A stretch of DNA of 35,833 nt from Clostridia bacterium (GCA_045536095.1 JAZSMW010000121.1:1-35833); one strand, 5' to 3'; positions 1,874 to 24,643 are shown, counted from the stretch's first letter. The notes: generated by a model from the sequence alone, not told the origin. Translations and numbers: made by a program.

Positions 1874-2037
1874 TTAAAATAGCACCAAAAAATTTAAACA
1901 AGTTAAATTTTAATCATTCATAAATGAATGCTTTCTTGCTAATCGCTAGTGTTGGTGTTTTTTTAATGCGGGCGGAAATACTGTTTCAAACTTGCAAGTA
2001 AACTTGCGTCTAGAGATATTTCCTCCTACATAAAAAA
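1874..2037 (+). repeat. Terminator-adjacent structured repeat, copy A (head type 1)
   Basis: It shares the AACACCAA...TTGGTGTT head, the AATGCGGGCGG linker, the GGAAATA...TATTTCC long hairpin and the CTACATAAAAAA tail with the other copies. Its 3' end abuts the hairpin at 2036-2069. Confidence 0.85.
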
Positions 2038-2075
2038 GTTGCAATTTGTGAAAAACCCAAATGCAACTTTTTTTG
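2032..2075. terminator. Bidirectional rho-independent terminator (rsuA-like gene / upstream + strand ORF)
   Basis: The stem is AAGTTGCA (2036-2043) / TGCAACTT (2062-2069), flanked by an A-run and a T-run. Confidence 0.6.
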
Positions 2076-2104
2076 ATTATTTTTTGTATTTTATATTTTC
2101 TAAA

Positions 2105-2812
2105 TTATAAATTTTTAATTAATTGTTCTACCTCTAGATTTGTTAATTCTCTAAATTCACCTCTTTGTAGAGTTGGATCTAGTTCTAATGCACCAAAATT
2201 TGTTCTTTCTAAAAACGTTATTTTATTCCCAACAGCCCCAAACATCCGTTTAATTTCATGGTACTTTCCTTCGGTTAACTGAATATAACCCCTGTTTTTT
2301 TCTTTCATATGAATTCTACACGGTTTTGTCACATAACCATCTTTTAACAAAATTCCCGCTTCAATTTTATGCTCATTGTGTTTTGTTAATTCTTCGGCAC
2401 ATTCAAAATAATAAACCTTGCTTACATGTTTTTTTGGGGCAAGTAATTTATGCGCTGATATTCCATCATTTGTTAATATAACTAAACCTAACGTGTCTTT
2501 ATCTAATCTCCCACATGGAAAAAGCCCCATTTTTTTATACTTTTGAGGTAGCAAATCTAAAACGGTTTTTTGTCTAGCATCTTCGGTAGCACTAACAACT
2601 CCGCTTGGTTTGTTTAGCATTATATAAACGTATTTATTGTAATTTATTACCTGACCGTTATAAATAACTTTTGCAGTTTGTTCGTTAATTTTACAATCAG
2701 GCTTTTTTATTATTTCACCATCTACTGTAACTCGCCCCTTTTTTATTTCTGCATTTGCTTCAGACCGTGAAAGTGTTGCTGTTTCGGTGAAAAATTTATC
2801 TAATCTAATCAT
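2105..2812 (-). CDS. rsuA: Pseudouridine synthase, RsuA/RluB family, with an N-terminal S4 domain
   Basis: It has the N-terminal S4-like segment MIRLDKFF...LSRSEA...I..G.V.V.G and the catalytic motif GRLDKDTLGLVILTNDG. The size (235 aa) fits RsuA. Confidence 0.85.
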   Translation of the reverse strand: MIRLDKFFTETATLSRSEANAEIKKGRVTVDGEIIKKPDCKINEQTAKVIYNGQVINYNKYVYIMLNKPSGVVSATEDARQKTVLDLLPQKYKKMGLFPCGRLDKDTLGLVILTNDGISAHKLLAPKKHVSKVYYFECAEELTKHNEHKIEAGILLKDGYVTKPCRIHMKEKNRGYIQLTEGKYHEIKRMFGAVGNKITFLERTNFGALELDPTLQRGEFRELTNLEVEQLIKNL

Positions 2813-4972
2813 CTAGTCCTCTTGTTGACAATCCTTTATTGTTAATTGAATTCTCTTTTTTTGAACATCTACCGAAAGTACTTTAACATTTAGTTGTTGT
2901 CCAACTGTTAGTTCTTCTGATGGATGCTTAATGTATTTATTAGATATTTGTGAAATATGAACTAAACCATCTTGATGAACACCAATATCTACAAACGCAC
3001 CAAAGTCTATTACATTACGAACTGTTCCTTTAATTATCATACCCTCTTTTAAATCTTCTAGCCCCAAAAGTTCTGCTCTAAGTACTGGTTTTGGCATATC
3101 TTCACGAATGTCTCTTCCCGGCTTAGAAAGTTCTTTAACCATATCTATAAGTGTTGGAACACCAACCCCAATTTCTGTTGCAACTTTTTCTTCGCCTTTT
3201 AGTTTTACTAAGCTAGAAAGCGTTTCTAAGTTACCCTCTTTAACATCTTGATCTGTCAAGCTAAATAATTTTAAAAGCTTTTGTGCACTTTCATAACTTT
3301 CTGGATGCACAGCGGTGTTGTCTAACACGTTTTGTCCGTCAACAATTCTTAAAAAGCCCGCACACTGTTCATATGCCTTTGGCCCAAGTTTTTTTACCTT
3401 TAAAAGCTGTTCTCTATTAGTAAAATTATTAATTTCCTTACGATACTCACATATGTTTTTTGCAATAGACGAATTAAGCCCTGAAACATAAGATAAAAGG
3501 CTAGGCGATGCTGTGTTTAAGTCTACACCAACACTATTAACGCAATCTTCTACCACGCCTGTTAATACCTCTGTTAAACGGTTTTGCGGCATGTCGTGTT
3601 GATATTGTCCAACGCCAATAGATTTTACATCTATTTTAATTAATTCTGCAAGAGGATCTTGAAGCCTACGAGCAATAGAAACGGCACTTCTTAAATTAAC
3701 ATCAAAGTCTGGAAATTCTTCGGCGCCCAATTTACTTGCCGAATAAACAGACGCTCCGGCTTCATTTACCATTGCGTAATTTAATTTACGATTTACTTGC
3801 TTAATTAATTCGCATATAAAAATTTCAGATTCTTTACTTGCTGTTCCATTACCAACAGCAACAATGTCCACATTGTGTTTTTCTACTAACGCCTTAAGTT
3901 TAATTAATGATTCTTCTGTTTTATTAAATGGTGGGGTTGGATAAACAACTGTTGTGTCTAATACTTCTCCGTGAGAATCAATTATGGCAACTTTACATCC
4001 CATTCTGTAACCAGGATCAAAACCCATAATAACATTATTTTTTAATGGTGACTGTAAAAGTAATGGCTTTAAATTTACTTCAAACATTTTAATTGCTTGC
4101 TCGCTTGCAAAATCGGTTAATTCATTTCTGCACTCATTTTCTAAACTAGGGAATAGCAACCTTTTATAACTGTCGGCAATAACCTCTTCCATAATTTCTT
4201 TTGTTGTTGAATTTGGTTTAATGTATGCATTAGATATTTCAGTTAATGCCAATTGCTCCTCTAATTGAATACTAACCTTTAAACACTCTTCATTCTCTCC
4301 CCTATTTATTGCTAAAATTCTATGACTAGGGATGCTTTTTACAGGTTCTGAGTGTTCTGCATACATTTCATACACTTCGCTGCCCTCTTTTTCTACTAAA
4401 GTGGTGCAAATTTGTGCATGATTTTTTATAACTTCTCTTAAAGTTTTTCTAAGTTCACTATCATCTGATATTCGCTCTGCAATGATATCTTTTGCCCCTG
4501 CAAGAGCCTCTTCTACAGAGTTGACTTCCTTTTCTTCGTTTACAAATGCTTGAGCAACTTGCAAAATGTCTTGAGTTTCTTCTTGCTGTTGCAAAATATC
4601 TGCAAGAGGTTCTAGCCCTTTTGCGATAGCAACACTTGCTCTTGTTTTACGTTTTGGCTTATATGGCCTATAAATATCTTCTACTTCGGTTAATGTTTTT
4701 GCTTCCTTTAACTTTTGCTCTAATTCTTCGGTCCATTTTTCTTGCTCTTTTATAGAATTTTCTACCTCGCCCTTTCTTTTTTCGAGGTTTCTTAAATAAT
4801 TTAATCTATCTGAAAATTCTCTTAAAACTTGATCATCACATGAACCATGCATTTCCTTTCTATATCTTGCAATAAATGGGATTGTGCACCCCTCATCTAA
4901 TAAAGTTATTATGTTTTGAACATACTCCGTTTTTAAACTAAATTCTTCGCTTAATGTATTTACTATTTCCAT
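2813..4972 (-). CDS. tex: Tex transcription accessory protein (YqgF-like and HhH domains, C-terminal S1 domain)
   Basis: The N-terminus carries TIPFIARYRKEMHG. The C-terminus has an S1 motif, GMIIKGTVRNVIDFGAFVDIGVHQDGLVHISQIS. The length is 719 aa. Confidence 0.92.
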   Translation of the reverse strand: MEIVNTLSEEFSLKTEYVQNIITLLDEGCTIPFIARYRKEMHGSCDDQVLREFSDRLNYLRNLEKRKGEVENSIKEQEKWTEELEQKLKEAKTLTEVEDIYRPYKPKRKTRASVAIAKGLEPLADILQQQEETQDILQVAQAFVNEEKEVNSVEEALAGAKDIIAERISDDSELRKTLREVIKNHAQICTTLVEKEGSEVYEMYAEHSEPVKSIPSHRILAINRGENEECLKVSIQLEEQLALTEISNAYIKPNSTTKEIMEEVIADSYKRLLFPSLENECRNELTDFASEQAIKMFEVNLKPLLLQSPLKNNVIMGFDPGYRMGCKVAIIDSHGEVLDTTVVYPTPPFNKTEESLIKLKALVEKHNVDIVAVGNGTASKESEIFICELIKQVNRKLNYAMVNEAGASVYSASKLGAEEFPDFDVNLRSAVSIARRLQDPLAELIKIDVKSIGVGQYQHDMPQNRLTEVLTGVVEDCVNSVGVDLNTASPSLLSYVSGLNSSIAKNICEYRKEINNFTNREQLLKVKKLGPKAYEQCAGFLRIVDGQNVLDNTAVHPESYESAQKLLKLFSLTDQDVKEGNLETLSSLVKLKGEEKVATEIGVGVPTLIDMVKELSKPGRDIREDMPKPVLRAELLGLEDLKEGMIIKGTVRNVIDFGAFVDIGVHQDGLVHISQISNKYIKHPSEELTVGQQLNVKVLSVDVQKKRIQLTIKDCQQED

Positions 4973-4990
4973 TTTTGTAACAATTTCCTT

Positions 4991-6277: not shown

Positions 6278-6342
6278 AAAAAATACCCACTTTTTTATAA
6301 AATTGCTTTTATTTGTCTTATTTTAGTTGTATAATACAAAAT

Positions 6343-6356
6343 AGAACATTTGTTCT
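6343..6356 (+). promoter_or_regulatory. LexA (Cheo/SOS) box upstream of dinB
   Basis: The sequence aGAACATTTGTTCt matches the Firmicute GAAC-N4-GTTC consensus. It lies 8 nt downstream of a TATAAT at 6330-6335 and 63 nt upstream of the dinB ATG. Confidence 0.75.
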
Positions 6357-6418
6357 TGTTTTGGTTATTTCTTACTAAAACATGATGTATATTACCATAA
6401 AACAAGGGGGTTTGGCAA

Positions 6419-7636
6419 ATGAAAGAGCGAGTTATCTTCCATTGTGACGCAAATAGTTTTTATGCTTCTGTTGAAATTGCAAATAATAAAAACTTAACAG
6501 GAAAACCTGTTGCTGTAACTGGCAACCCAGAAAAAAGAACAGGCATTATTTTAACTAGAAGCCTTGAAGCAAAAAAATATGGTGTTGAAACCGGTGAAGC
6601 AATTTGGCAGGCAAAGCTTAAATGCCCAAACCTTGTTTGCGTACCACCAAATCACGCTCTGTATGCGGAATATTCTAAAAATCTACGCAAAATATATGAG
6701 AAATATACCGACCGTGTAGAAAGTTTTGGAATTGACGAGTGCTGGCTTGATATGACCGATAGTTTAAAGTTTTTTGGTTCTGCAAAAGAAGTTGCCGACA
6801 AAATAAGAGAAGATGTAAAAACCACTCTTAACATAACAATATCTGTTGGAGTTAGTTTTGGAAAACTTTTAGCAAAACTCGGTTCAGACATAAAAAAACC
6901 AGACGCAACAACAATTATAGACAAACACAACTTTAAACAAATTGTTTATCCATTACCCATAACCTCAATAATAGGAATTGGGAAACGCCTAAATAAGCGA
7001 TACAACAAAATAGGCGTTTTTAAACTTGGGGAAATAATAGATATTCCCGATAGCGTTTTAAAGAAAAACTTTGGAATTTTAGGACTACAACTAAAACAAA
7101 AACTTTTGGGCAACGATTATGACGAAGTAAAAAAATGCAATGATATATCGGCCCCTAAAAGCATTGGAAACGGAACTACAACAATAAAAGATGTATACAC
7201 TCGGGACGAAATAATGGGTGTTGTTACTGCTCTTTGTGAAGAAATTTCTACCAGATTAAGAGCAGAAAACTTTAATGCTGGAAGTGTTTCTGTCACTATT
7301 AAAACCGCAGATTTTCGTTATATTCATGAAACCTCACGACTTTTATTTAAAACAAACACAAATTTAGATCTCTGTAATTGTTGTATGCGTTTAATTGATT
7401 CTTTTTGGAAATATGGAACCGCAGTAAGAGCAATAAGAATTTGCACATACAACTTAAGTAGTTGCAATGAAACTCAATTAAACATGTTTAGCAATTCTCT
7501 TAAAAATTCCAACCTAAACAGTGCCCTAGATAAAATTAGAAACAAATATGGATACTATTCTATTACTCCCCTATCACTTGCAAAATCCACAGTTTTAGAT
7601 CTATCCAGAGTAGAAACAACCCCGCCCCGAACATAA
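6419..7636 (+). CDS. dinB: DNA polymerase IV (Y-family translesion polymerase)
   Basis: The N-terminus reads ERVIFHCDANSFYASVE and the ...GIDECWLDMT motif is present. An RBS (AAGGGGG) and an upstream SOS box support the call. Confidence 0.9.
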   Translation: MKERVIFHCDANSFYASVEIANNKNLTGKPVAVTGNPEKRTGIILTRSLEAKKYGVETGEAIWQAKLKCPNLVCVPPNHALYAEYSKNLRKIYEKYTDRVESFGIDECWLDMTDSLKFFGSAKEVADKIREDVKTTLNITISVGVSFGKLLAKLGSDIKKPDATTIIDKHNFKQIVYPLPITSIIGIGKRLNKRYNKIGVFKLGEIIDIPDSVLKKNFGILGLQLKQKLLGNDYDEVKKCNDISAPKSIGNGTTTIKDVYTRDEIMGVVTALCEEISTRLRAENFNAGSVSVTIKTADFRYIHETSRLLFKTNTNLDLCNCCMRLIDSFWKYGTAVRAIRICTYNLSSCNETQLNMFSNSLKNSNLNSALDKIRNKYGYYSITPLSLAKSTVLDLSRVETTPPRT

Positions 7637-7796
7637 AAAACCATCGCAATTTTAAATAAATTTAAAATTATGCATTTGTTCCACAAATACACTTTTGCTA
7701 TTCACAAAAGCGATGGCCCTTTGGTACGGGCGGAAATACTGCTTCAAACTTGCAAGTAAACTTGCGTTTAACGATATTTCCTACTACATAAAAAAA
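7633..7796 (+). repeat. Terminator-adjacent structured repeat, copy B (head type 2)
   Basis: It has the CCATCGC...GCGATGG head, the TGGTACGGGCGG linker, the GGAAATA...TATTTCC hairpin and the CTACTACATAAAAAAA tail. Its 5' ATAAAAAA overlaps the dinB stop codon (7634-7636). Confidence 0.9.
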
Positions 7797-7816
7797 CAGG
7801 AGAAACTCCTGTTTTA
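7790..7816 (-). terminator. Rho-independent terminator of the 7814-8872 gene
   Basis: The stem-loop ACAGGAG-AAA-CTCCTGT (7796-7812) starts 1 nt after the stop codon. The U-tract corresponds to the A-run at 7790-7796. Confidence 0.75.
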
Positions 7817-8872
7817 TCTACCCCTGTCTCTTTCATCAACCCTTGGAGGCAAATTATTTCTTTGCTTATTTTGATCAACCCACTCACCCAAAAACGAAGA
7901 ATAATCGTTTTCGGCCTCTAAATTATTCTTTTTTGTTCTTGTAGGTTTAGGCTTAAATTCTCTTGGAACATCCTTACTTGGGGTGGCAGGTTTAACCGCA
8001 GCACTCCCCTTAGAACCTCCCTTTTTCTTTTTTTTGTCGGCCTTTTTGTCTTTTCCTGCCTTCTTTTTTTTCTTTTTATCATCACTCTTTTTTTTCTTTT
8101 GAGCTGTAACAACCTCTTCTGGTGCCATAATTTTTACATTTTTAATAGCACTTAAATATGCCTCTTGAAGTAAAATCATTTTATCTAACACTGGGCCTGC
8201 AAAAACATCTTTATTTTTTAAAAGCATAGAATCTATCATTAATTTTAATTCACGCCAATATTTTTTATCGGCTTTGGTTAATTTTTTTAATTCTATTCTT
8301 TTTTTAAGTTCTAATAAAAATTGTTGTCCATAAGGGCCTGCAGTTTTAATTAATGCAAGCATTTTTAAAACATATGCCTTGTCTGCAGGAATAGAAGCCA
8401 TCAGCATTGCCTCATAATGCATTTTTAATTTTTTAAGGCGTTCTTGAATTTTTAAAAGGGTTGCATTGTCAATATCTACCCCCTCAGACTCGTCTTGTGC
8501 GTAAAGATGAAACGCCTTTTTAATTTCAATAAAAAAGTTTGCATCATTTTTTAAAACAACGCTATGCACATAAGTTTGTAAATCTTTATCTATAAAGCCT
8601 AAAGTGCTTTTTTCTAACACAAACAAGCCTGCTCTTTTTTGGTTGTTTTCTCCATCTTGTATATATACAACAAATTTAAGTTTTGCATCACCAACCTTGG
8701 CAGTTGCCAAAATTTTATTGTCAGAAAATGAATCTATAATTTTATTACATATAATAAGCTCTTGAATAATATCTTGATCAATAACATAGTTATCATCAGC
8801 ATCAAAAAAACCTAAAAGGCCACTGGCCTCTGCATCTAAATTTTTTAAATAATTTATATACTTTTTGTTCAT
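7814..8872 (-). CDS. Hypothetical protein with an extremely lysine-rich C-terminal tail (352 aa)
   Basis: ORF track. The first ~250 residues look helical, followed by KKKKSDDKKKKKKAGKDKKADKKKKKGGSKGS... I recognise no family. Confidence 0.6.
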   Translation of the reverse strand: MNKKYINYLKNLDAEASGLLGFFDADDNYVIDQDIIQELIICNKIIDSFSDNKILATAKVGDAKLKFVVYIQDGENNQKRAGLFVLEKSTLGFIDKDLQTYVHSVVLKNDANFFIEIKKAFHLYAQDESEGVDIDNATLLKIQERLKKLKMHYEAMLMASIPADKAYVLKMLALIKTAGPYGQQFLLELKKRIELKKLTKADKKYWRELKLMIDSMLLKNKDVFAGPVLDKMILLQEAYLSAIKNVKIMAPEEVVTAQKKKKSDDKKKKKKAGKDKKADKKKKKGGSKGSAAVKPATPSKDVPREFKPKPTRTKKNNLEAENDYSSFLGEWVDQNKQRNNLPPRVDERDRGR

Positions 8873-8880
8873 ATGGATTT

Positions 8881-8909
8881 ATTATATAATATATTGTTAC
8901 TTTTTGCAA
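8881..8909 (-). promoter_or_regulatory. Sigma-A-type promoter of the 7814-8872 gene, probably giving a leaderless mRNA
   Basis: On the minus strand the sequence reads TTGCAA (8909-8904), a 17-nt spacer, then TATAAT (8886-8881). Only 8 nt (AAATCCAT) separate the -10 from the ATG at 8872, and no SD sequence is present. Confidence 0.55.
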
Positions 8910-8952
8910 GTATTATTTAATAGGCCCCTAGAAAAATCCTTTTAAATTTTTA

Positions 8953-9008
8953 TAAAGTGTTTCAAGCTTGCAAGTAAACTTGCGTCTAGAGATATTTCCT
9001 ACTAAATA
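8953..9008 (+). repeat. Truncated repeat copy C' (tail hairpin module only)
   Basis: The sequence AGTGTTTCAAGCTTGCAAGTAAACTTGCGTCTAGAGATATTTCCTACTAAAT matches the 3' module of copies A and C. It lacks the GCGGGCGGAAATA 5' arm and is fused directly to copy C. Confidence 0.8.
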
Positions 9009-9170
9009 AAATAACACCAAAAAATTTAAGCAAGTTAAATTTTAACCATTCATAAATGAATGCTTTCTTTGTTAAGCGCTAGTGTTGGTGTTTTTTTAAT
9101 GCGGGCGGAAATACTGTTTCAAGCTTGCAAGTAAACTTGCGTTTGACGATATTTCCTTCTACATAAAAAA
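9005..9170 (+). repeat. Terminator-adjacent structured repeat, copy C (head type 1)
   Basis: It is near-identical to copy A over head, linker and tail. Its 3' AAAAAA (9165-9170) is the U-tract of the rpmA terminator. Confidence 0.9.
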
Positions 9171-9196
9171 GCCAAAGACAATTAATTGTCTTTGGC
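9165..9196 (-). terminator. Rho-independent terminator of rpmA
   Basis: A perfect 13-bp palindrome, GCCAAAGACAATT/AATTGTCTTTGGC (9171-9196), is followed on the minus strand by the T-run (A-run 9165-9170). Confidence 0.85.
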
Positions 9197-9211
9197 ATGT
9201 TTTTTACTTTA

Positions 9212-9490
9212 TTATTCTGCAGCTATTACACTAACATACTTTTTATCGCCACTGTTGTGAAATTTAACAGTGCCATCTACTTTTGCAAAAATTGTGTAAT
9301 CTTTGCCAAGCCCGCAATTTTCACCCGCATAAACTTTTGTTCCGCGTTGTCTAATAATAATTGATCCTGCAAGAACTGGTTGACCGTCTGCTGCTTTAAC
9401 GCCTAAACGTTTAGAGTTACTATCTCTACCATTTTTAGTGCTACCGCCACCTTTTTTATGGGCAAAAAGTTGAATATTAATAAATTTCAT
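9212..9490 (-). CDS. rpmA: 50S ribosomal protein L27 with a Prp-cleavable N-terminal extension
   Basis: The sequence reads [32 protein letters not shown].... I trimmed the ORF to the ATG at 9490, which has a GGAGG RBS 6 nt upstream. The longer ORF-track start would overlap prp. Confidence 0.92.
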
Positions 9491-9827
9491 TTTTGACCTC
9501 CAAATTAATGTATTTTTTATAGTTTTTATTACCACATAATAAGCATTTTACTGACTCTTCAAAAGTCATAAACAAAATTTGTGCTTTTTGCATTTGCTCT
9601 TTTGTTAAATCATTTGACAAAAAGCATGACAAATATGCATTATTGTTTTCTATTTTTATTATGGGCTTTAGGCTTAAAACATTTTCGAGCCCCACACAAA
9701 CCATTTGTGATAAAGACGAAATTGCTGCACACACTATGTCGCTTCCTTCACCTGCATAGCCAGAATGTCCAGAAACAACAAAGCCTAAAATTGTGCCATT
9801 GTTTTTTGTTATTTGAATTTTTGTCAT
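9477..9827 (-). CDS. prp: Ribosomal-processing cysteine protease Prp (YsxB family)
   Basis: It sits between rplU and rpmA. The motif [18 protein letters not shown] contains the catalytic His/Cys. It overlaps the rpmA start by 14 nt. Confidence 0.88.
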
Positions 9828-9876
9828 AATTTTTTACCTATCAAACATTATATAATGCTTGCTTTTAAAGGTTTAA

Positions 9877-10182
9877 TTACTTAATTTCAACAATTTTGAT
9901 TGCAGTGTATGGTTGTCTGTGACCTTGTTTTCTGCGATAGTTCTTTTTTGCTTTGTATTTGTAAACAACAATTTTATCGCCTTTTCCATGTTCAACAACT
10001 TCTGCAACACAAGTAACTCCATTAACAACTGGGTTACCAGCAACAATTGTTCCGTTGTCAGAAACAAGTAAAACATCGAAATTAACTTTTGAACCAACTT
10101 CAAGTTCTAGCTTTTCTACTTTAACAACGTCACCAACTGCAACTTTGTATTGTTTTCCACCAGTTTGAATAATTGCAAACAT
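9877..10182 (-). CDS. rplU: 50S ribosomal protein L21
   Basis: The sequence reads [16 protein letters not shown]...VEKL......[20 protein letters not shown]. Confidence 0.95.
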
Positions 10183-10262
10183 TTGCGCCTCCTAAAAATA
10201 AATCTCACTACGCACAAGGCGGGTTAAACCACTTTTTAAGCCCTGCATATGTGGCATACGGG
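10183..10262 (-). promoter_or_regulatory. Candidate L21 ribosomal-protein leader (5' UTR of rplU-prp-rpmA)
   Basis: This ~80-nt GC-enriched UTR lies between a consensus promoter and the rplU RBS, where Firmicutes carry the L21 leader. I could not verify the structure by hand. Confidence 0.5.
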
Positions 10263-10266
10263 TAAG

Positions 10267-10296
10267 ATTATACAACAAGTATACTTGTTTTGTCAA
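10267..10296 (-). promoter_or_regulatory. Consensus sigma-A promoter of the rplU operon
   Basis: On the minus strand the sequence reads TTGACA (10296-10291), an 18-nt spacer, then TATAAT (10272-10267). Confidence 0.8.
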
Positions 10297-10334
10297 CAAT
10301 TAAATTAATTAATTTTGCCTTTTGTTTAAATTAG

Positions 10335-10498
10335 AATAAAATAACACCAAAAAATTTAAATAAGTTAAATTTTAACATTCACAAATGAATGCTTCTTTGC
10401 TAATCGCTAGTGTTGGTGTCTTTTGGTACGGGCGGATATCGCATTTAATCTGAGAATAAATTCTCTTGTAAATGCGATATTTCCTACTACATAAAAAA
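10335..10498 (+). repeat. Terminator-adjacent structured repeat, copy D (head type 1, divergent tail)
   Basis: It has the AACACCAA...TTGGTGT head and the TGGTACGGGCGG linker. The tail is GGATATCGCATTTA...GAGAATAAATTCTC...TAAATGCGATATTTCC, followed by CTACTACATAAAAAA. Confidence 0.9.
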
Positions 10499-10515
10499 TG
10501 CACTAATATAGTGCA
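10492..10515 (-). terminator. Rho-independent terminator of the DUF4132-like gene
   Basis: The stem is TGCACTA-ATA-TAGTGCA (10499-10515). The A-run at 10493-10498 is the U-tract on the minus strand. Confidence 0.7.
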
Positions 10516-10527
10516 TTTAATTTTTTA

Positions 10528-12681
10528 TTATAATTTTTTTGAGGCCGAAACAGCATTTAATACATAATCGTAATATCTTGGTTCTACACCGCCAATTGCA
10601 ATTGCATTTGCTTTGTTAATTATGTATGCACTACCATTTTTTAAGCATTGGTTTAGTTTATAAAACCTAATGTTCCCTAAACTTGATGTAGAAGTGTAAT
10701 AAGTAACTGGAGTTTCAAATGCCACCTCGGCAAGTAAATTAAGCTCTGGACAAGCATGCACAAGCTCGGTTGCATCTTCGCCGTCATGTGAAATATTTTT
10801 TATAAAACCAAACTCTGCCATTTCAGAAATAAACTTAATTGCATTAATTAAAATACCATGCATACTAGAAACTTTTGAAAGCGTTTTTTCATTTTCTTTT
10901 ATTGGAAAAATCGAATTTGTAAATTGTTTAAACGTTGGGTTAGAAAAATATGATTTTGCACTTTCAAATCTGTCATCTAAATCTAACGAATGCGCAATTT
11001 TAATTTTTAAGTCATTTGCGTCTTGTGCTGTTCCTGCTATGTATTTAATTTGTTTTTCTTCTAACACAAAAAGAGAAAGCAACCTATCTTGTTTATATTC
11101 TCCAAAAACCAATTTTTGCGCTAAAATATTAAATACTTTTTTTTCAATAAAAATTTCTTCAAATTGTTGTTTAGAATAACTTTTATTTGCTATAAAGCCA
11201 GCATATAACCTCTGTTTTTGAGAAGCAATAGCCTCTTCTGTAATTTCATCGCTTGCAAGCATATCTAAAACATCTGAATTTGTTTTTTGCAAATTTTCAG
11301 AATATATAGAAACAAAATAATCTTTATCTTCTAAAAACTTTGGATTTTGTTCTTCTATTAATTTAGAAATTGTTGTAATAACTCCCGCACGTTTTGCGTA
11401 AATTAAACATTCCATAAAATATTTTGCCTCTTTGTGGCGGTTAAGTTTATATAATCCTGCAATAAATTCATATATCTGTTCCAAAAGTTGTTCACTTGCA
11501 AGAAGAGAAATTAGCCTTATTGCCCACTTCGCTTCTTTAATATCTTTCATGTGGCTAACAACAAAATATAATTTTTCGGCAAAATTGTTTAAGTCTATTT
11601 CATTAAACAATGTTTTAACGTCACTTAAACCACATAAATTTAACAGGTCTTTTTCTTCTTTAAAAATATTAATTAAATACGTTTTTACAATGTTGTTTGC
11701 CGGTGTTCCATCAACAAAATTTAAATTAACTTTTTCAAAAGCAATACCAAGCGTTCTTTCTTGAATGGTTTCAACTTTTTTTTGTGCCATTGTTTCAAAA
11801 TGCTTAGGCGAAACACCTAAATTTTGTTTACTAGAAATGCCCAGTTTAAGTTTAATAAAGTTTTTTATTTCTTCATTTTGTTCTTCTTCATACAAATCTT
11901 CTAGCCTAGCAGTAACTTCTGGATTTTCTATGCTAGCCAATATTTTTACATAGTTAAATTTTTTGTTGCCAGCCGTTTCTAAATTCTTGTCAAAAAATGC
12001 CATTGTGTCGGTATAATAGTGTTTGAGCATTTTTGCAATTAATTTATCATCTATTGCTCCAATTTCGGAATCAAAAATTTGGCTAATTGCCTTTTGCGTA
12101 TTAAACTCAAGCCCCAGCTCTAAATATGTAAGATTATGCATTGAGTTGGTTGCCACAAAGCTTGCAATTTCCTCCATGTTCTCTCTATATAAATTTTGCA
12201 AATATTCAAGCGCAGGAGCAAGCCAAACCGAAATGGACGATTTGTCGTTATCTTCTACAATAGCAAACAAAAATGGCAATACATCACCAGTTGTTATGTC
12301 TGTGCTTTTAACAACTTCTATAAAACGGTCAAAATAACGCTCTTTGTGAGAATATTCTTTATTTTTGCTAATATATGTGCTTGGCCCCACGTGCGCCACA
12401 AATAACTTTTCTAAGAACAAAATTATTGCCCAATAATTTTTAGTATGCAAAAACATTTTAGTTAAATTGCAAAGCGCAGGTAAATATTCATTTAACTGAA
12501 AAATAAGTTCAGCTAATTTGCTAACCGCATTTTCGCAATTTGCACTTACCTGTGCATTTTTTAAAAGATCTCTAATGTTAGAAAAACTCATAGCATCTAG
12601 CATTGGGATGTTAGATACATCTATGTTAAAAATTTCATTAATTTTATCACTAATTTGTTTATAATTTCTTAATATTTCCAT
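10528..12681 (-). CDS. Large helical protein, DUF4132-like (717 aa)
   Basis: ORF track. The C-terminal segment KLVFGEYKQDR...IKIAHSLDLDD...FKQFTNSIFPI resembles the DUF4132 signature as I remember it. No search was run. Confidence 0.5.
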   Translation of the reverse strand: MEILRNYKQISDKINEIFNIDVSNIPMLDAMSFSNIRDLLKNAQVSANCENAVSKLAELIFQLNEYLPALCNLTKMFLHTKNYWAIILFLEKLFVAHVGPSTYISKNKEYSHKERYFDRFIEVVKSTDITTGDVLPFLFAIVEDNDKSSISVWLAPALEYLQNLYRENMEEIASFVATNSMHNLTYLELGLEFNTQKAISQIFDSEIGAIDDKLIAKMLKHYYTDTMAFFDKNLETAGNKKFNYVKILASIENPEVTARLEDLYEEEQNEEIKNFIKLKLGISSKQNLGVSPKHFETMAQKKVETIQERTLGIAFEKVNLNFVDGTPANNIVKTYLINIFKEEKDLLNLCGLSDVKTLFNEIDLNNFAEKLYFVVSHMKDIKEAKWAIRLISLLASEQLLEQIYEFIAGLYKLNRHKEAKYFMECLIYAKRAGVITTISKLIEEQNPKFLEDKDYFVSIYSENLQKTNSDVLDMLASDEITEEAIASQKQRLYAGFIANKSYSKQQFEEIFIEKKVFNILAQKLVFGEYKQDRLLSLFVLEEKQIKYIAGTAQDANDLKIKIAHSLDLDDRFESAKSYFSNPTFKQFTNSIFPIKENEKTLSKVSSMHGILINAIKFISEMAEFGFIKNISHDGEDATELVHACPELNLLAEVAFETPVTYYTSTSSLGNIRFYKLNQCLKNGSAYIINKANAIAIGGVEPRYYDYVLNAVSASKKL

Positions 12682-12797
12682 ATTTTCTCCAATTAAATTT
12701 TATCACATCTAAAACTATTTGTAAAATTTTTTATGTAATTTCTTTTTATTGTTAAAAATAATTATTTGCTTATTTTATACAAATTTTAATTTAACAC

Positions 12798-12826
12798 TTT
12801 ACAAATGTTTTTTTTGCTGTTATAAT
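12798..12826 (+). promoter_or_regulatory. Sigma-A promoter of the ileS leader
   Basis: The sequence reads TTTACA (12798-12803), a 17-nt spacer, then TATAAT (12821-12826). Confidence 0.7.
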
Positions 12827-12834
12827 CTTTTTGT

Positions 12835-13098
12835 AAGTTTTAAAAACTTAATATAAAATGCGCTACAACAAAAGACACGGCTTATGTAACCTTGTTTTTA
12901 GAGAGTTGCCGTTTGGTGCAAGGCAATAAACAAATACACAAGTTATCCCTTTTGGAGCAGGTTTACCGAACAAGCTTTTTGTTTTATTAGGTTAACACGG
13001 GTCTTCCCGTTATAGAAGAAGTGGGTGCTAGCCCACAGCATAAACAAGTGGTATAACTCTTAGCAAGAGTCTTGTTTTTGCTAGGAGTTTTTTTATTT
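12835..13098 (+). promoter_or_regulatory. T-box riboswitch leader (Ile) with an intrinsic terminator
   Basis: It has an AG box AGAGAG (12900-12905) and a distal loop GGTGCAA (12915-12921). The candidate specifier is AUC at 12945-12947, but AUA at 12926 or 12934 is possible. A degenerate T-box core AAACAAGTGGTATAACTC lies at 13042-13059. The terminator is AACTCTTAGCAA (13055-13066) / TTGCTAGGAGTT (13078-13089) plus a T7 run, directly upstream of ileS. Confidence 0.8.
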
Positions 13099-13112
13099 AA
13101 AAGGAGATTATT

Positions 13113-16100
13113 ATGTACAAAAAAGTTGGCGAAATGAACCTTGCTCAAACCGAAGAACAAGTTTTAAAGTTTTGGCAAGAAAACAACATTAAAAATCAAT
13201 GTTTAAGCCACAACAAAGGCAAAAAGATGTATTCTTTTTATGAGGGGCCTCCAACAGCAAATGGACAACCTCATGCTGGTCACGTTTTAACAAGAACGCT
13301 TAAAGACCTATTTAACCGTTTTCATTTAATGAAAGGCTACGAAGTTCCAAGAAAGGGCGGATGGGACACTCACGGGTTACCTGTTGAAATTTCTGTAGAA
13401 AAAGAAATAGGAATTTCGGGCAAACAACAAATTGAAGCTTATGGCGTAGAAAAATTTATTACCGAATGCAAAAAAGACGTTTGGAAATATGTTGACCTTT
13501 GGAAAACATTTTCAGACCGTGTTGGATACTTTGTTAACATGGATGACGACTGCTATGTTACTTATAAAGACGACTATATTGAGAGCGAATGGTGGAGTTT
13601 AAAAGAGTTAAACAATAAGGGTCTTTTATATAAAGGTTACAAGGTTTTACCATGTTGCCCAAGCTGTGGAACAGCACTTTCCTCTCACGAAGTTGCTCAA
13701 GGCTATAAAGAACGAAACGATTTAACAATTGTTGCTAAATTTAAAGCGGCAAATCATATAAACACTTACTTTTTAGCATGGACAACTACCCCATGGACAC
13801 TTCCTTCTAACGTTGCTCTTTGCGTTAACCCTGTTGAAACCTATGTTAAAATTGAATGTTTTGAAACTGGCGAAAACTATATTTTAGCCGAAGCATTAGT
13901 TTCTTCGTTTTTTAAAGATGAAGAATTTAAAATTGTAGAAAAATACACAGGTAAACAATTAGAATATCAAAAATATGAACCACTATTTAACTTTGCATCA
14001 AGCGATGTAACAGCAAAAGCATTTTTTGTAACATGCGATGCATATGTTACACTAACAGACGGAACTGGCATTGTTCACATTGCGCCAGCCTATGGTGCAG
14101 ACGATGCCAATGTTGGAATGAAATATAACTTGCCTTTTGTTGCAATGGCTGGTCAAGACGGATTGTTTACATCCGCATGTGAAAAATATGCTGGCAAAAA
14201 TGTGTTTGATGTTAACGAACAAGTTGCAGAAGACTTAAGAACTGATGGCAAAGTGTTTAAAAGTGCAAGACACAAACACGAATATCCACACTGCTGGAGA
14301 TGTAAATCACCTCTTATGTATTTTGCAAGAGACGGCTGGTTTGTTAAAACAACAGCAATTAAAGATGAATTAATAAAAAATAACCAAGAGGTTAATTGGC
14401 ACCCAGATTCTATAAAAGACGGACGTATGGGCAACTGGCTAGAAAATGTTATAGACTGGAACATTTCTAGAGATCGCTATTGGGGAACTCCTCTTCCTGT
14501 TTGGACTTGTGAATGTGGTCACTACCATGTTGTTGGATCTAAAGCCGAACTTAAGGAACTTGGAAATTTAAGTGAAGATATAGAACTACACAAACCATAT
14601 GTAGATGATGTAACACTAACCTGCCCACACTGTGGAAAACCAATGAAGCGTGAGCCATACGTTATAGACTGCTGGTACGATAGTGGTTCTATGCCTTTTG
14701 CTCAATTCCACTATCCATTTGAAAACAAAGAAGAATTTGAACGTAGATTCCCTGCCGACTTTATTTCGGAAGGAGTTGATCAATGCCGTGGTTGGTTTTA
14801 TACTCAACTTGTGCTAGGCACTGCTCTATTTGGCAAAGCTCCATACAAGCATGTTATTGTTAACGGGCTTGTTGTTGACGATAATGGGGTTAAACTTTCT
14901 AAGAGCCTTGGAAATTACCGTCCACCAATGGAAATAATAAACGCTGTTGGCGCAGATGCTGTTAGGTGGTCCTTCTACACAACAACCCAACCGTGGAATA
15001 ACCAACCAATGTCTGTTAAAAGCGCATCAGAATCTGTTAAAAATTATTTTGGTACACTTTGGAACACTTATGCATTTTTTGTTTTGTATGCAGAAATTGA
15101 CCAGTTTGACCCAAGCAAATATAACTTAAGCGATTGTAATCTTTCTATTATGGACAAATGGGTTTTATCTGAATTTAATACCCTTGTTGCCGAAGTTACA
15201 GAACTTGTAGAAACTTACCACTGCACAGAAGCAGCCCGCAAGGTTCAAGTTTTTGTTGAAAATCTTTCAAACTGGTATGTAAGAAGATGCCGCAAACGCT
15301 ATTGGGCTGGAGGTATGACTGAAGATAAAATAAGTGCTTATGTTACTCTTTGGGAAGTTCTTGTTGGGCTATGCAAACTAACTGCACCATTTACTCCGTT
15401 TGTAACCGAAAGCATGTATCAAAACCTAGTTACTCCATTTTTTGAAAACGCTCCAAAAAGCGTTCACCTTTGTGACTATCCAGAAGTAAATACATCGTTT
15501 ATAAATCAAAAATTAAGCACAGATATGGATTTATGTTACAAGTTTACTGAGCTTGGCAGAAGTGCAAGAAACCTAAGCAATATAAAAATCCGTCAACCAC
15601 TTGCAAAGCTATATATTACAGATGCAAATGGCAAATTTGATTTGGATGCTAATTTAATTACCCAAATAAAAGAAGAATTAAACGTTAAAGAAATAATCGA
15701 AAATGAAGACTTGTCAAAATTTGTTAAATATTCTATAAAACCTCAACTAAAAACTTTAGGGCCAAAATATGGTTCACTTCTTGGTGAAATAAGAAACTTT
15801 TTTGCAAATTGCGACGCAAACCAAGTGGTTGCTTGTGTTAGAAGCGGAAATACGTTTAAAACAACCTTAAACGGCACTTTGGTAGAGTTTGCCGAAAGTG
15901 ACATTTTAATTTCGGTTGAACAAACATCTGCTTACACTTCTGCAACCGAAGGGTCTCTTGCCGTTGTTCTAGACACAACCCTAACCCAAGAATTAATAGA
16001 GGAAGGCACTGTTCGTGAATTTGTTTCTAAAGTTCAAAACTTAAGAAAAACAAGTGGATATGAGGTAACAGACCGCATTAATATAAGCGTGGATGGAAAC

Positions 16101-16250
16101 CCAGACCTTGTTGATTTAATAGTTAAAAACGAACCAACAATTGTTAAAGATTGCCTAGCTTTAAGCGTTAGTCAAGGAACCAGCGGAGAATTTAACGACG
16201 AGTTTGAATTTGACAATAAAACAATTACTGTTTATATCAGCAAAAATTAA
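13113..16250 (+). CDS. ileS: Isoleucine--tRNA ligase (type 2, 1045 aa)
   Basis: The HIGH-like motif is PTANGQPHAGHV and the KMSKS-like motif is KLSKSLGN. Zn-binding CxxC pairs are present. An RBS (AAGGAG) precedes the start. Confidence 0.95.
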   Translation: MYKKVGEMNLAQTEEQVLKFWQENNIKNQCLSHNKGKKMYSFYEGPPTANGQPHAGHVLTRTLKDLFNRFHLMKGYEVPRKGGWDTHGLPVEISVEKEIGISGKQQIEAYGVEKFITECKKDVWKYVDLWKTFSDRVGYFVNMDDDCYVTYKDDYIESEWWSLKELNNKGLLYKGYKVLPCCPSCGTALSSHEVAQGYKERNDLTIVAKFKAANHINTYFLAWTTTPWTLPSNVALCVNPVETYVKIECFETGENYILAEALVSSFFKDEEFKIVEKYTGKQLEYQKYEPLFNFASSDVTAKAFFVTCDAYVTLTDGTGIVHIAPAYGADDANVGMKYNLPFVAMAGQDGLFTSACEKYAGKNVFDVNEQVAEDLRTDGKVFKSARHKHEYPHCWRCKSPLMYFARDGWFVKTTAIKDELIKNNQEVNWHPDSIKDGRMGNWLENVIDWNISRDRYWGTPLPVWTCECGHYHVVGSKAELKELGNLSEDIELHKPYVDDVTLTCPHCGKPMKREPYVIDCWYDSGSMPFAQFHYPFENKEEFERRFPADFISEGVDQCRGWFYTQLVLGTALFGKAPYKHVIVNGLVVDDNGVKLSKSLGNYRPPMEIINAVGADAVRWSFYTTTQPWNNQPMSVKSASESVKNYFGTLWNTYAFFVLYAEIDQFDPSKYNLSDCNLSIMDKWVLSEFNTLVAEVTELVETYHCTEAARKVQVFVENLSNWYVRRCRKRYWAGGMTEDKISAYVTLWEVLVGLCKLTAPFTPFVTESMYQNLVTPFFENAPKSVHLCDYPEVNTSFINQKLSTDMDLCYKFTELGRSARNLSNIKIRQPLAKLYITDANGKFDLDANLITQIKEELNVKEIIENEDLSKFVKYSIKPQLKTLGPKYGSLLGEIRNFFANCDANQVVACVRSGNTFKTTLNGTLVEFAESDILISVEQTSAYTSATEGSLAVVLDTTLTQELIEEGTVREFVSKVQNLRKTSGYEVTDRINISVDGNPDLVDLIVKNEPTIVKDCLALSVSQGTSGEFNDEFEFDNKTITVYISKN

Positions 16251-16286
16251 AACGTCTTTTAAATAACACTTTTAAAAATATTAAAC

Positions 16287-16317
16287 AAAAGCCAAAACTC
16301 TGGCTTTTGTTTTTTCT
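16287..16317 (+). terminator. Rho-independent terminator of ileS
   Basis: The stem is AAAAGCCA (16287-16294) / TGGCTTTT (16301-16308), followed by GTTTTTTCTT. Confidence 0.75.
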
Positions 16318-16474
16318 TATGTAGTGGGAAATATCGTTTAAACGCAAATTTATTTGTGGGTTTAAAACGAGATTTCCGCTCGTACCAAAAATCACTGCTT
16401 TTGTGATAACAAAAGTGTTGAATTTATTCAAGTGGATAATTTTAAATCTATTTAAAGTTGCGGTGTTATTTTAT
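16311..16474 (-). repeat. Terminator-adjacent structured repeat, copy E (hybrid head, divergent tail), the only minus-strand copy
   Basis: Its reverse complement reads ATAAAATAACACCGC...CTTTTGTTATCACAAAAGCAGTGATTTTTGGTACGAGCGGAAATCTCG...CAAATAAATTTG...CGATATTTCCCACTACATAAGAAAAAA. The tail end abuts the ileS terminator. Confidence 0.85.
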
Positions 16475-16510
16475 CTTACAAGCAATTTTACAAATAACCT
16501 TAAATGTTAT

Positions 16511-16544
16511 AAAAAAATCAAGGGCATTTCCCTTGATTTTTATT
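16511..16544. terminator. Bidirectional terminator downstream of the secreted LRR gene
   Basis: The stem is ATCAAGGG (16517-16524) / CCCTTGAT (16530-16537), flanked by A7 and T-rich runs. Confidence 0.7.
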
Positions 16545-16545
16545 T

Positions 16546-18432
16546 CTATTTTGTATATTTAACATAACCAGCTTTGTCTTGAGTTGCGCTCTCGCTAAAC
16601 CCTTTACTTACCAACTGTGTGCTACTTAAACCATTTTTTAAGTATACGGTTGTGGTTGCAGAATTTGCTAACAAATAACCCATGTATGTGCTATTATTTG
16701 CAATTGTGCTACTATCTATTGTTACAGTTTGCAATCTTGAACAACCATCAAATGCATCGGAACCAATTCTTGTTGCAGATGCCCCAATTGTCAATGAAGT
16801 AATAGCAGAACATCCCCTAAATGCAAAGTCACCAATAACATCTGTTAATCCGGTTAAATTTACTTCACCACTTATGCCAGAGCACCCATTAAATGCCGCA
16901 AAACCTACTGAGTTTAGCTTTGACATGTTTACTGAGCCGGTTATTCCTGTGCACCCATTAAATGCATATGGCCCAACTGATGTTACATTTGATAAATTTA
17001 AACCTGTAATTTTTTTATAGTTTGTAAATTGTGCTCCCACACTTGTTACATCGCTAGGAACTGTTAATGTGCCATCAACCAATACATTGTTTATATATAA
17101 ATTTCGTGCGCTTTCAAAGATGTAAGGATTACTTGTTATTTCTATGCCAAACCACTCTTTTAAAGTTCCTGCATAATAAACATTTGATAAATTACAATCT
17201 TTAAATGCAGCAACACCTATGGATGTTACATTATCAAGCATTAAATCACCAAATATTTTTACACAGCCACTAAATGCATAAATACCAATGTTAGTTGCAT
17301 TTGATAAGTTTAAACTGCTTACAACTACATTTTTGCAATCTGCAAAGGCATACTGACCAATGCTTGTTACATTTTCTAAATCTAAAGAAATTAAAGTTTG
17401 ACATTCATTAAACGCATATTCACCAATTGTTGCTCCGCTAGCAAAGCTTAAGCTAGATATTAATTGATTGCAACCACTAAATGCGCGCTGACCAACAGTA
17501 GCTAAATTTTGCGTGTTTATAACATCAAATATTTGACTACCATTAAAAGCATATTCGCCAACCGACGTTGCACTAGTTAAATTTGCAAAACCTTTAAATG
17601 ATGTGCAACCATTAAAGGCATAATCCCCTATTGTTGTTACATTATTTAAATTAATTCCGTTAAGCGAAGTTTTACCTTTAAATGCATTGGAACTAATTGT
17701 TGTTGTGCTAGGCGTTAATGCAACATGTTTTATATTGCTAGAAAATGCATAAGCTGGCACCTGTGAAACAGCCTCTGGCAATTTAACTAAAGTATCTGAA
17801 ATTGTTGTGCCTGCAGTTTGCGATGAACCACTAGGAAGTGTTGTTAAACTAGAAATTTCTTCACTTGGTGCATACTCTTCCATATTTAAGTAGTAAGAAA
17901 AACTGCAATTTGTTGCAACATTTAAGTTTGTTCCTGGCCTTATACTAAAAAATACATCCATGCTAATTTCGTCTTGATCGGAAGAATCATCTGCTTTTTT
18001 TAAATATGAATATGATGTTAAGTTAACATTAAGTATGTTCCTTAATGTGTCGGAGGTTTTAATGTCTGACCCTACAGCTAACGTGTTTGTTGTTTTTTCT
18101 TCTTCACCCGAATAAAAATAAACACCCAAATTTTTGTTACTTAAATTTTTAATATGTATTGTTAGTTTTGTGCAAACACCAGACATTTTGCTGTTATGAG
18201 ATATTGCCAATGTTGGAATAGTTAAATCCACACCATATATGCTTTGCGTTGGCTCTAATATTTGTTCACCATTTATATAACCACTTATTTCTATATTACT
18301 ATTTGGTGGGGTTATATGTACCGTGCCACCCAAAGTTGAATTTGATGGTACAGAAGCATATACTCCAATACCAACTATACCCACACACAATATTAATAAT
18401 AAAACACTCAAAAATATTTTTTGTTTTTTCAT
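16546..18432 (-). CDS. Secreted/surface BspA-type leucine-rich repeat (LRR_5-like) protein (628 aa)
   Basis: The N-terminus is signal/anchor-like (MKKQKIFLSVLLLILCVGIVGIGVYA). A ~200 aa non-repeat region follows, then many ~23 aa units of the form NVTSIG.YAF.GC..L. Confidence 0.8.
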   Translation of the reverse strand: MKKQKIFLSVLLLILCVGIVGIGVYASVPSNSTLGGTVHITPPNSNIEISGYINGEQILEPTQSIYGVDLTIPTLAISHNSKMSGVCTKLTIHIKNLSNKNLGVYFYSGEEEKTTNTLAVGSDIKTSDTLRNILNVNLTSYSYLKKADDSSDQDEISMDVFFSIRPGTNLNVATNCSFSYYLNMEEYAPSEEISSLTTLPSGSSQTAGTTISDTLVKLPEAVSQVPAYAFSSNIKHVALTPSTTTISSNAFKGKTSLNGINLNNVTTIGDYAFNGCTSFKGFANLTSATSVGEYAFNGSQIFDVINTQNLATVGQRAFSGCNQLISSLSFASGATIGEYAFNECQTLISLDLENVTSIGQYAFADCKNVVVSSLNLSNATNIGIYAFSGCVKIFGDLMLDNVTSIGVAAFKDCNLSNVYYAGTLKEWFGIEITSNPYIFESARNLYINNVLVDGTLTVPSDVTSVGAQFTNYKKITGLNLSNVTSVGPYAFNGCTGITGSVNMSKLNSVGFAAFNGCSGISGEVNLTGLTDVIGDFAFRGCSAITSLTIGASATRIGSDAFDGCSRLQTVTIDSSTIANNSTYMGYLLANSATTTVYLKNGLSSTQLVSKGFSESATQDKAGYVKYTK

Positions 18433-18638
18433 GATTTTATTGTTTCTCCTTAATACGACTTAAACTTTAGTTTAAGTGCATGCTTGTACATATGTATGTT
18501 AACACAATTAATGTTTTTAATGCAAAACATTTAACTTATTATTTTGCTTTTTTTTATTTACATTTATTTTATAAAACCCAAAAGTTTTAATAAAGTTATT
18601 CTTATTTGTTATTGAATTTAACAAAATATCTCGCACAA

Positions 18639-18802
18639 ATAAAAAACCATCGCAATTTTAAATAAATTTAAAATTATGTATCTGTTTCACAAATACTCTT
18701 TTGCTATCCACAAAAGCGATGGCCCTTTGGTACGGGCGGAAATACTGCTAAAATCTTGCGAATAAATTCGCCGATTTACGATATTTCCTACTACATAAAA
18801 AA
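18639..18802 (+). repeat. Terminator-adjacent structured repeat, copy F (head type 2, divergent tail)
   Basis: The head is near-identical to copy B. The tail is GGAAATACTGCTAAAATCTTGCGAATAAATTCGCCGATTTACGATATTTCC, followed by CTACTACATAAAAAA. Confidence 0.9.
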
Positions 18803-19277: not shown

Positions 19278-19280
19278 AAA

Positions 19281-23964: not shown

Positions 23965-23968
23965 TTTT

Positions 23969-24640: not shown

Positions 24641-24643
24641 ATT

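Follow-up and report, generated by a model that had tools for sequence, protein, structure and literature searches.

The group A repeats of the Bacillus cereus group, bcr1-bcr3, include bcr1, an element of ~155 bp with TTTAT at both ends and a cruciform-like fold that shows compensatory changes; bcr1 is intergenic and multicopy, occurs with many partial copies, has no known transposase, and its locations vary between strains (PMC3184786, PMC6542083, PMC6199540). TTTAT is also the motif adjacent to ISGst2, a member of the IS200/IS605 family from Geobacillus stearothermophilus, and the same genome contains gene-less PATE-like derivatives (PMC10055086). Repetitive extragenic palindromes (REPs) have a GTAG or GTGG located 0-2 nt 5' of a hairpin that Y1 enzymes recognise (PMC6006769; PMC3733652), and SPRITE, RUP and BOX of Streptococcus pneumoniae are small AT-rich structured repeats that are enriched at 3' ends and between convergent genes and are regarded as non-autonomous parasites (PMC3049150). 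Here we analyse a family of structured repeats in a 35,833 bp stretch of DNA from a Clostridia bacterium (JAZSMW010000121.1; "the window" in the following), whose relatives are metagenome-assembled genomes (MAGs) of uncultured Clostridia of gut type. It is a real and well-defined new repeat family of a known kind, that of small structured non-autonomous mobile repeats, and not a new class of non-coding RNA (ncRNA) gene. Its distinctive trait is a terminator-adjacent landing site of fixed orientation combined with a target that renews itself.

The six full copies and one fragment that had been listed in an earlier note on this DNA were all recovered at their positions, in the alignment as well as by a repeat finder, which returned them as families of direct and inverted repeats. 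Mean column identity of the six full copies (A to F) is 76% in the alignment; covariance models find the window copies at E = 1e-18 to 1e-36, and no full copies beyond these six. The anatomy given in the note is correct: an ATAAAA lead, a closing stem P1 around three small hairpins, a GC-rich linker GGTACGGGCGG, a hairpin of ~50 nt (GGAAATA...TATTTCC) and the end CTACTACATAAAAAA; the P1 and apical-stem variants listed there agree with the alignment. The linker had been called unpaired, which holds for part of it only, since its GTAC end is predicted to pair with GTA across the long hairpin (no compensatory change is seen there). The unit is better bounded when it is read in the opposite direction, here termed orientation T, the reverse complement of the orientation used before. 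In T it extends from GTAG to TTTAT and measures about 141-157 nt, or 146-162 nt if one includes the TTTAT-like pentamer that adjoins the GTAG end on its upstream side. Overall GC content of the element is ~30-38%.

A single architecture is common to all copies and consists of a long hairpin (D1) followed by a four-way junction (D2). Sequence is conserved at the foot of D1, GGAAAT/ATTTCC, and in the two flanks, one of which has GTAGTA or TATGTAGTA and the other GCCCGTACCAAAA; the upper part of D1 is kept as pairing only, its stems varying with compensation. GTAG occurs without variation in all 21 of the copies compared and stands 2 nt ahead of the likewise invariant 6-bp foot. D2 comprises P1 (5-7 bp) and three hairpins with almost no unpaired bases at the junction, and it is conserved almost solely as pairing. 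P1 occurs as CCATCGC/GCGATGG, CACCAA/TTGGTG, GCGTTG/CAACGC, GCATTG/CAATGC, GCATTT/AAATGC and CCATTG/CAATGG, with others besides. The conserved start of every copy also reads ATG TAG TAG, a start codon and then two stops (for example 7781-7789 on the - strand), and in copy A a GGAGG comes next.

Further copies were obtained by scans with the D1 pattern, of genomes (loci L001-L004 and L006) and of metagenomes (L009, L011 and L012). Altogether the pattern matched in four MAGs, three of which have real copies, and in a few metagenome contigs; the matches L005 and L010 turned out to be chance matches. The covariance model R2 was built from a structure specified by hand and replaced the model R1, which had a poor consensus structure and in which MAFFT had misaligned the two P1 types. 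An alignment of 21 copies, which are related to each other and come from only about five lineages, was fitted to R2 and used to assess covariation. Standard pairs occupy 88.6% of the cells, compared with 74.3% in shuffles and 35-46% when the partners are slid by 1-3 columns. Both sides have changed in 34 of the 51 pairs, including 6/6 in P1 and 10/10 in the middle hairpin, and the covariation score of 0.388 (0.151 in shuffles) was matched by none of 500 shuffles. Within P1, a copy's own partners pair in 59 of 64 cells, compared with 46% when the partners are taken across copies. Each copy folds 3-6 standard deviations better than its dinucleotide shuffles on both strands. The proposal that selection acts on a folded single strand and not on primary sequence is supported by strong covariation that includes the long-range P1 stem. 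Since the partners in P1 lie in a 75-nt range, their covariation requires a long single strand, either RNA or DNA exposed by replication.

The pairs themselves give no clear indication of which of the two strands or nucleic acids is folded. Almost all stem pairs are Watson-Crick, and G·T pairs are few on both strands. Folding of single sequences gives 56 G·U pairs in T and 69 in the orientation used before; the fitted alignment contains 62 G·T and 30 A·C cells, where a single conserved T·G beside an internal loop accounts for 18 of the 62, so that these counts hold no usable strand signal. Stems that are nearly all Watson-Crick fit DNA hairpins at least as well as RNA.

The second line of evidence is the landing site. 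Read in T, all six window copies start directly behind a host hairpin with a T-run (judged by eye; the stem at copy A is imperfect and the pentamer at copy E is CTTAT). Copy A (1874..2029, - strand, GTAG...TTTAA, 96.9 bits with the covariance model, target pentamer TTTAT at 2030-2034) follows the hairpin of the rluB-like gene (2038..2067, -, from direct reading), which has an imperfect two-way terminator shape, and the sequence before GTAG is GTTGCATTTG...CAAATTGCAAC TTTTTTAT. Copy B (7633..7787, -, 166.6 bits) lies behind the hairpin CAGGAGTTTCTCCTG of a gene for a 352-aa protein (7797..7811, -; 7815-7793 in the terminator scan), which is followed by TTTTTTTAT. Its parts are D1 at 7787-7723, the linker AAAGGG at 7722-7717, P1 at 7716-7710 with 7647-7641 enclosing the three hairpins, and the tail TTTTTTAT at 7640-7633, all on the - strand. 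The far end of copy B overlaps the dinB stop codon (7634-7636): at 7633-7636 this codon lies within the terminal ATAAA of the copy, and the insertion thus abuts or supplies the end of the dinB reading frame.

Copy C (9006..9162, -, target pentamer TTTAT at 9163-9167) is preceded by the intrinsic terminator hairpin of rpmA, the gene for L27 (9171..9196, -), with GCCAAAGACAATTAATTGTCTTTGGC TTTTTTAT before GTAG, and copy D (10336..10490, -, target pentamer at 10491-10495) by the terminator hairpin of the DUF4132 gene (10499..10515, -), with TGCACTATATTAGTGCA TTTTTTAT. Copy E (16321..16474, 127.2 bits) is the sole copy with GTAG...TTTAT on the + strand; it is found behind the terminator hairpin of ileS (16285..16310, +), the sequence before GTAG being ACAAAAGCC...GGCTTTTGT TTTTTCTTAT, with the preceding pentamer CTTAT at 16316-16320. 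Copy F (18639..18794, -, target pentamer at 18795-18799) follows the terminator hairpin behind the last small gene of a prophage lysis cassette (18803..18822, -), with CGGGTTCAATTATGAGCCCG TTTTTTAT. The six host hairpins are mutually unrelated. An independent terminator scan flagged five of them, those at copies B to F; the hairpin at copy A was not flagged owing to its imperfect stem. A perfect hairpin precedes 4 of the 5 exact junctions of TTTAT with GTAG in the window; among the remaining intergenic TTTAT it does so at 7 of 72, and within genes at 4 of 277.

Copy E is inverted along with its terminator, which belongs to a + strand gene, and this shows that the orientation of the element tracks the hairpin and T-run. 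The element is likewise preceded by a hairpin and T-run at the related loci L003, L004 and L006/L012, with seven bases intervening at L003. The hairpin is a strong preference and not an absolute rule. The pentamer ahead of GTAG is TTTAT or a one-base variant of it in all copies and always has the same relative orientation. At the other end TTTAT closes nearly all copies, in the window all except A (TTTAA). The two flanking pentamers are unlike each other in A, E, L009 and the first unit of L004, and the 3' pentamer is almost constant.

The far end of the element, consisting of the P1 stem, a T-run and AT, is itself a replica of the landing site, which accounts for the head-to-tail arrays of 2-4 units that were found at L001, L002, L003, L004 and L011, and at L007 and L008, two loci from other samples of the same species as the window; each junction in these arrays has one common TTTAT. 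Several arrays are closed by partial units that contain the GTAG/D1 end only, namely at L001 (2992-3050), at L002 (~1990-2034) and at the rpmA site of the window and L007. In the window this fragment (8957..9005, -) represents only the first ~49 nt of D1, starts directly behind the terminal TTTAT of copy C and is followed by another TTTAT (8952-8956), so that it is bounded by TTTAT on both sides. The fragments may have arisen by internal deletion, by the use of another end or because copying was aborted.

Comparison of close relatives shows that the elements change faster than their surroundings. The flanks of L007 and L008 are 99.1-99.6% identical to the window, with one block at 97.9%. At the rpmA site, L007 and L008 have two full tandem units plus the fragment, compared with one unit plus the fragment in the window. 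At the site of copy D the elements of L007 and the window are ~85% identical; D1 has been replaced by the type found in copy F and D2 is unchanged (window 10336-10490, L007 940-1097). Copy A is 97% identical to its counterpart in L007 (5 of 164 positions differ), several times the divergence of the flanks, and copy B is the same at 162 of 164 positions, no more divergent than its flanks. Within the window, the D1 types a, d, e and f are combined with the D2 types I and II in various ways, which together with the replacement of D1 alone at site D implies that the modules recombine at the conserved linker CCGCCCGTACCAAA. The syntenic relative L013, whose 352-aa protein is 64% identical, has the same gene order and terminators that end in TTTTTTAT or similar, with zero copies. 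At 9850-9900 of L013 the rpmA terminator is followed by TTTTTTGTAGAATATAGGGGTAG, which resembles the element start TTTTTTATGTAGAAGGAAATATAG and is either a decayed relic or due to chance; R2 has no match there. An independent Logan contig (L018) breaks off inside copy F, as is expected of a repeat that breaks assemblies.

Database searches did not assign the element to a described family. A scan of the whole window against Rfam yielded no matches at the gathering score, and with E up to 5 only chance-level matches were obtained over 7560-10600, a region with three copies. The sensitivity of the library is adequate in AT-rich DNA, since it finds a weak T-box upstream of ileS. ARAGORN detected no tRNA or tmRNA, and the four-way junction is not tRNA-like by that test. 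No coding capacity was found, the open reading frames (ORFs) across the element being chance frames through the conserved motif with no protein match. Reading in both orientations revealed no internal promoter, and a promoter scan found no more promoter-like sites than in shuffles. Collections of plasmids and phages gave no blastn match, and viral contigs no match of the D1 pattern. An ncRNA gene that stands by itself in a consistent transcriptional context is not supported, and the element behaves like an insertion: it adjoins a host hairpin and T-run in a single orientation, has TTTAT on both sides, forms arrays, differs in copy number and modules between near-identical strains and is missing from a syntenic relative. 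A phage or plasmid origin was discarded on the basis of the missing matches in the collections and in viral contigs; a search for relatives of a protein from the neighbouring prophage was negative as well.

Taken together, the family is very likely a selfish, non-autonomous mobile repeat. More specifically, we propose that it is a non-autonomous, structure-dependent mobile DNA element that is moved in trans while single-stranded, and we assign a probability of roughly 0.55 to this statement as a whole. The data show that the element inserts in one orientation 3' of a TTTAT-like pentamer, and that this pentamer almost invariably forms the tail of a hairpin of the terminator type; its mobilisation in the single-stranded state by a partner enzyme is what we infer. 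The likeliest enzyme is a Y1/HUH transposase, either of the IS200/IS605 kind or associated with REPs, which would recognise the D1 foot together with the GTAG tag and cut after TTTAT at both ends. The element's own P1 stem, T-run and AT copy the target, and the next copy could be inserted in tandem. The element would then be a gene-less PATE-like derivative, and bcr1 of Bacillus would belong to the same category. The host may be affected secondarily, for example by an extra terminator-like structure or by hairpins in 3' untranslated regions (3' UTRs).

The specific Y1/HUH route is a tentative part of this proposal, to which we give somewhat less than even odds. It is suggested by the missing inverted repeats, the strand-specific insertion beside a pentanucleotide, the TTTAT motif of ISGst2, the position of GTAG 2 nt before the foot, and the strand: GC skew on the + strand is negative throughout the window, and the T reading lies on the G-rich strand, the lagging-strand template, in five of the six copies. 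The same bias for the lagging-strand template has reportedly been seen for IS608.

A number of observations weigh against single-strand transposition by such an enzyme. No gene for a transposase, reverse transcriptase or recombinase was found in 173 kb from these genomes, tblastn with an IS608 TnpA sequence gave no match in the same 173 kb, and the ORFs of the window and the neighbours of the related loci, which are housekeeping genes, include no transposase, DDE enzymes among them. Genome, metagenome and viral scans with the D1 pattern returned no longer element with the same ends. IS200/IS605 elements normally end with similar hairpins left and right; here the hairpins of D1 and D2 are unrelated in sequence, D2 is almost without conserved sequence, and similar left- and right-end hairpins are missing. 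No convincing guide tetranucleotide that could pair with TTTAT was found beside the hairpin foot. IS200/IS605 elements are not known to favour terminators. The arrays at L001, L002 and L009 do not begin right behind a hairpin, and part of the position bias could be explained by selection against insertions elsewhere. The strand bias of five in six is confounded with gene orientation, the majority of genes in the window being on the - strand. Among the close strains L007, L008 and L018 no empty site was found, all common sites being filled; L013 is empty and too diverged for an alignment of the junctions. The difference in copy number at rpmA could also stem from unequal recombination between tandem units.

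The presence of TTTAT-like pentamers on both sides of nearly every copy would also be expected from a classical cut-and-paste miniature element, a MITE (miniature inverted-repeat transposable element) taken in the broad sense and similar to bcr1; movement of the element and duplication of TTTAT would then be due to a site-specific recombinase or DDE transposase that works on double-stranded DNA, and the hairpins would be incidental or serve the host once transcribed. The literature describes bcr1 in such terms (PMC3184786, PMC6542083, PMC6199540), and the size, AT-richness, intergenic sites and tandem or nested insertions are typical, as in the pneumococcal repeats (PMC3049150). We consider this explanation unlikely. 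When the ends (GTAGTAGGAAATAT... and ...GGTGTTATTTTAT) were compared by eye, no terminal inverted repeats, which in MITEs are about 15-30 bp long, were seen. The orientation is strictly bound to an asymmetric target, and where the two pentamers of a copy differ, the near-constant 3' one looks as if it were carried by the element. The covariation in P1, which requires a long single strand, also speaks against it, and no DDE transposase was seen near any copy.

It has also to be considered that the element serves the host as RNA, for instance as a module at 3' ends that boosts termination, stabilises the mRNA or acts as a small RNA, and that it was spread by duplication or recombination and kept for the role of its folded transcript. 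The strong covariation, the stable fold and the location at gene 3' ends would fit such a role, as would the position of D2 between an A-run and a T-run, which resembles a two-way terminator; pneumococcal SPRITE has been suggested to act as a terminator (PMC3049150). The transcriptional context does not support this. Copies C, D, E and F each come after a complete terminator, where a transcript in the T sense would be rare, whereas A, B and the L004 array are in the opposite sense, between the stop codon of a convergent gene and the shared two-way terminator and thus within a 3' UTR. This inconsistency argues against a role as cis-acting RNA. Arrays of up to four units, the fragments, the turnover that exceeds that of the flanks (copy B excepted) and the same genes without the element in L013 also speak against a host function, and neither strand shows an excess of G·U pairs. 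We therefore regard a host-serving RNA as improbable.

An undescribed parasite that homes to terminators would account for the landing site in a different way. Such a parasite would recognise a stem plus T-run in single-stranded nucleic acid and rebuild this shape at its far end, thereby making the site for the next insertion, with an enzyme outside the rules of IS200/IS605 and RAYT; we think this quite improbable. Its extreme version, copied through RNA and primed by the T-run like a short interspersed element (SINE), is a retroposon-like repeat. Here an RNA copy in the orientation used in the earlier note would anneal through its A-rich 3' end (CUACUACAUAAAAAA) to the nicked T-run of a terminator and prime reverse transcription, and aborted copies would keep the D1 end. 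All four partial copies indeed keep the GTAG/D1 end at the junction and are without D2, the window fragment has TTTAT on each side, and in all copies it is the A-rich end that is turned towards the T-run. A sample of four fragments is too small, however, the chance expectation being about 1 in 8; two of them have no TTTAT at the truncated side, and an internal deletion that spares both termini explains the window fragment equally well. The A-run is never longer than the T-run of an ordinary terminator, no reverse transcriptase was found in the 173 kb, and no bacterial element of this kind is known, which makes the retroposon very improbable. Finally, group II introns of class C reportedly home to sites just after intrinsic terminators in the same orientation and thus share with the element the hairpin and T-run target. 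That the element is a satellite or remnant of such an intron is close to refuted, because it has no ribozyme domains (notably domain V), no reverse transcriptase ORF and no match to a group II intron (Intron_gpII) or any other Rfam family even at E up to 5, is with 155 nt a tenth of the size of such introns and far too short for the ribozyme, and has ends (GUAG.../...UUUAU) that do not fit the termini GUGYG...AY.

The window is a piece of bacterial chromosome with ~31% GC that contains an rluB-like gene, tex, genes for an amidohydrolase and dinB, the L21-Prp-L27 operon, a DUF4132 gene, ileS and genes for BspA-type leucine-rich repeat (LRR) proteins; from ~19 kb there follows a prophage-like block, in which a holin and a portal similar to that of P22 are encoded, and then pyruvate kinase. 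The neighbouring ORFs of the related loci include Ku, a pyridoxal phosphate (PLP) enzyme, a restriction enzyme, trigger factor and a glycosyltransferase. Just downstream of copy D, the L21-Prp-L27 operon has a promoter with perfect consensus (TTGACA, 18 nt, TATAAT; 10296-10267, -), behind which a weak match to L21_leader was obtained (18 bits, E = 0.25; 10193-10296, -). The T-box leader upstream of ileS (12856-13077, +) reaches 82 bits (E = 2e-18) and was missed by the default scan, the Rfam gathering score being 93; a near-consensus promoter (12798-12826) and a terminator (13055-13089) accompany it. The prophage-like block (~18830-27140, -; also on L018) encodes the P22-like portal, structural proteins without Pfam matches, a protein with DUF7934, a BhlA holin and an ORF of 73 aa, and copy F comes straight after the terminator of the last gene in this block. 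A search of IMG/VR for relatives of the DUF7934 protein was negative. The four genes for BspA-type LRR proteins (16546-18432, 28835-29596 and 30891-33335, -) consist of periodic repeats of 69 nt (23 aa), and the two at 30.9-33.3 kb are partly duplicated, with repeats 1149 nt apart that are 70-89% identical.

For about 20 years it has been asked how small structured repeats like bcr1 are moved, and the family described here is a tractable case. It offers a clean system with an invariant module, made up of GTAG, the foot of D1 and the flank rich in GC, another module that is conserved in shape only, a sharp landing site and arrays that it makes itself. If the Y1/HUH partner is true, single-strand transposition would extend to a niche linked to terminators, and a mobiliser of bcr1-type repeats would be suggested. 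On the practical side, the element breaks assemblies of these uncultured Clostridia and inflates the apparent number of "novel structured RNAs" in metagenome screens.

In comparison with known systems, the element was initially said to resemble no named ncRNA and no REP, BOX, RUP or Correia-type element. As far as Rfam is concerned this stands, and what it overlooked are bcr1 and the gene-less IS200/IS605 derivatives with a TTTAT target. REPs, which are associated with RAYT enzymes, share the extragenic location, often at gene 3' ends, and the clustering, and GTAG 2 nt 5' of a fully paired foot agrees with the REP rule (GTAG or GTGG at 0-2 nt). REPs are 20-40 nt long, GC-rich (at least three G/C in the first four stem bases), usually arranged as inverted pairs and mainly proteobacterial, whereas the element is ~155 nt long and AT-rich, has the foot GGAA, is arranged head to tail and contains a second large domain; a RAYT gene was not seen. 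SPRITE consists of one 18-bp duplex and a U-rich tract and is itself terminator-like, in contrast to the element, which has a separate host terminator alongside and two elaborate covarying domains. PATEs resemble it in having no inverted repeats, hairpin ends, strand-specific insertion 3' of a pentanucleotide and no coding capacity, and they are mobilised in trans (PMC10055086); the bias of orientation towards the lagging-strand template is a further likeness. They differ in that the element has dissimilar hairpins at its two ends, one of them a four-way junction, and an end motif that equals the target motif and favours tandem insertion; moreover, tnpA, tnpB and iscB were all missing from the 173 kb and neither HEARO nor another Rfam family was matched. 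PATEs, REPs, SPRITE and class C introns thus each fail at least one defining feature. The closest system by description is bcr1, a likeness that is judged from descriptions and not from sequence. A blastn comparison with plasmids, some of which carry bcr1, gave no Bacillus match, which is a weak test of the relation. The host of the new family is an uncultured Clostridia bacterium instead of Bacillus, and those descriptions of bcr1 that were available to us mention neither strict placement behind terminator hairpins nor a target copied by the element itself nor tandem arrays. Both are ~150-160 bp in size, have TTTAT at each end and adopt a multi-stem fold that is maintained by compensatory changes.

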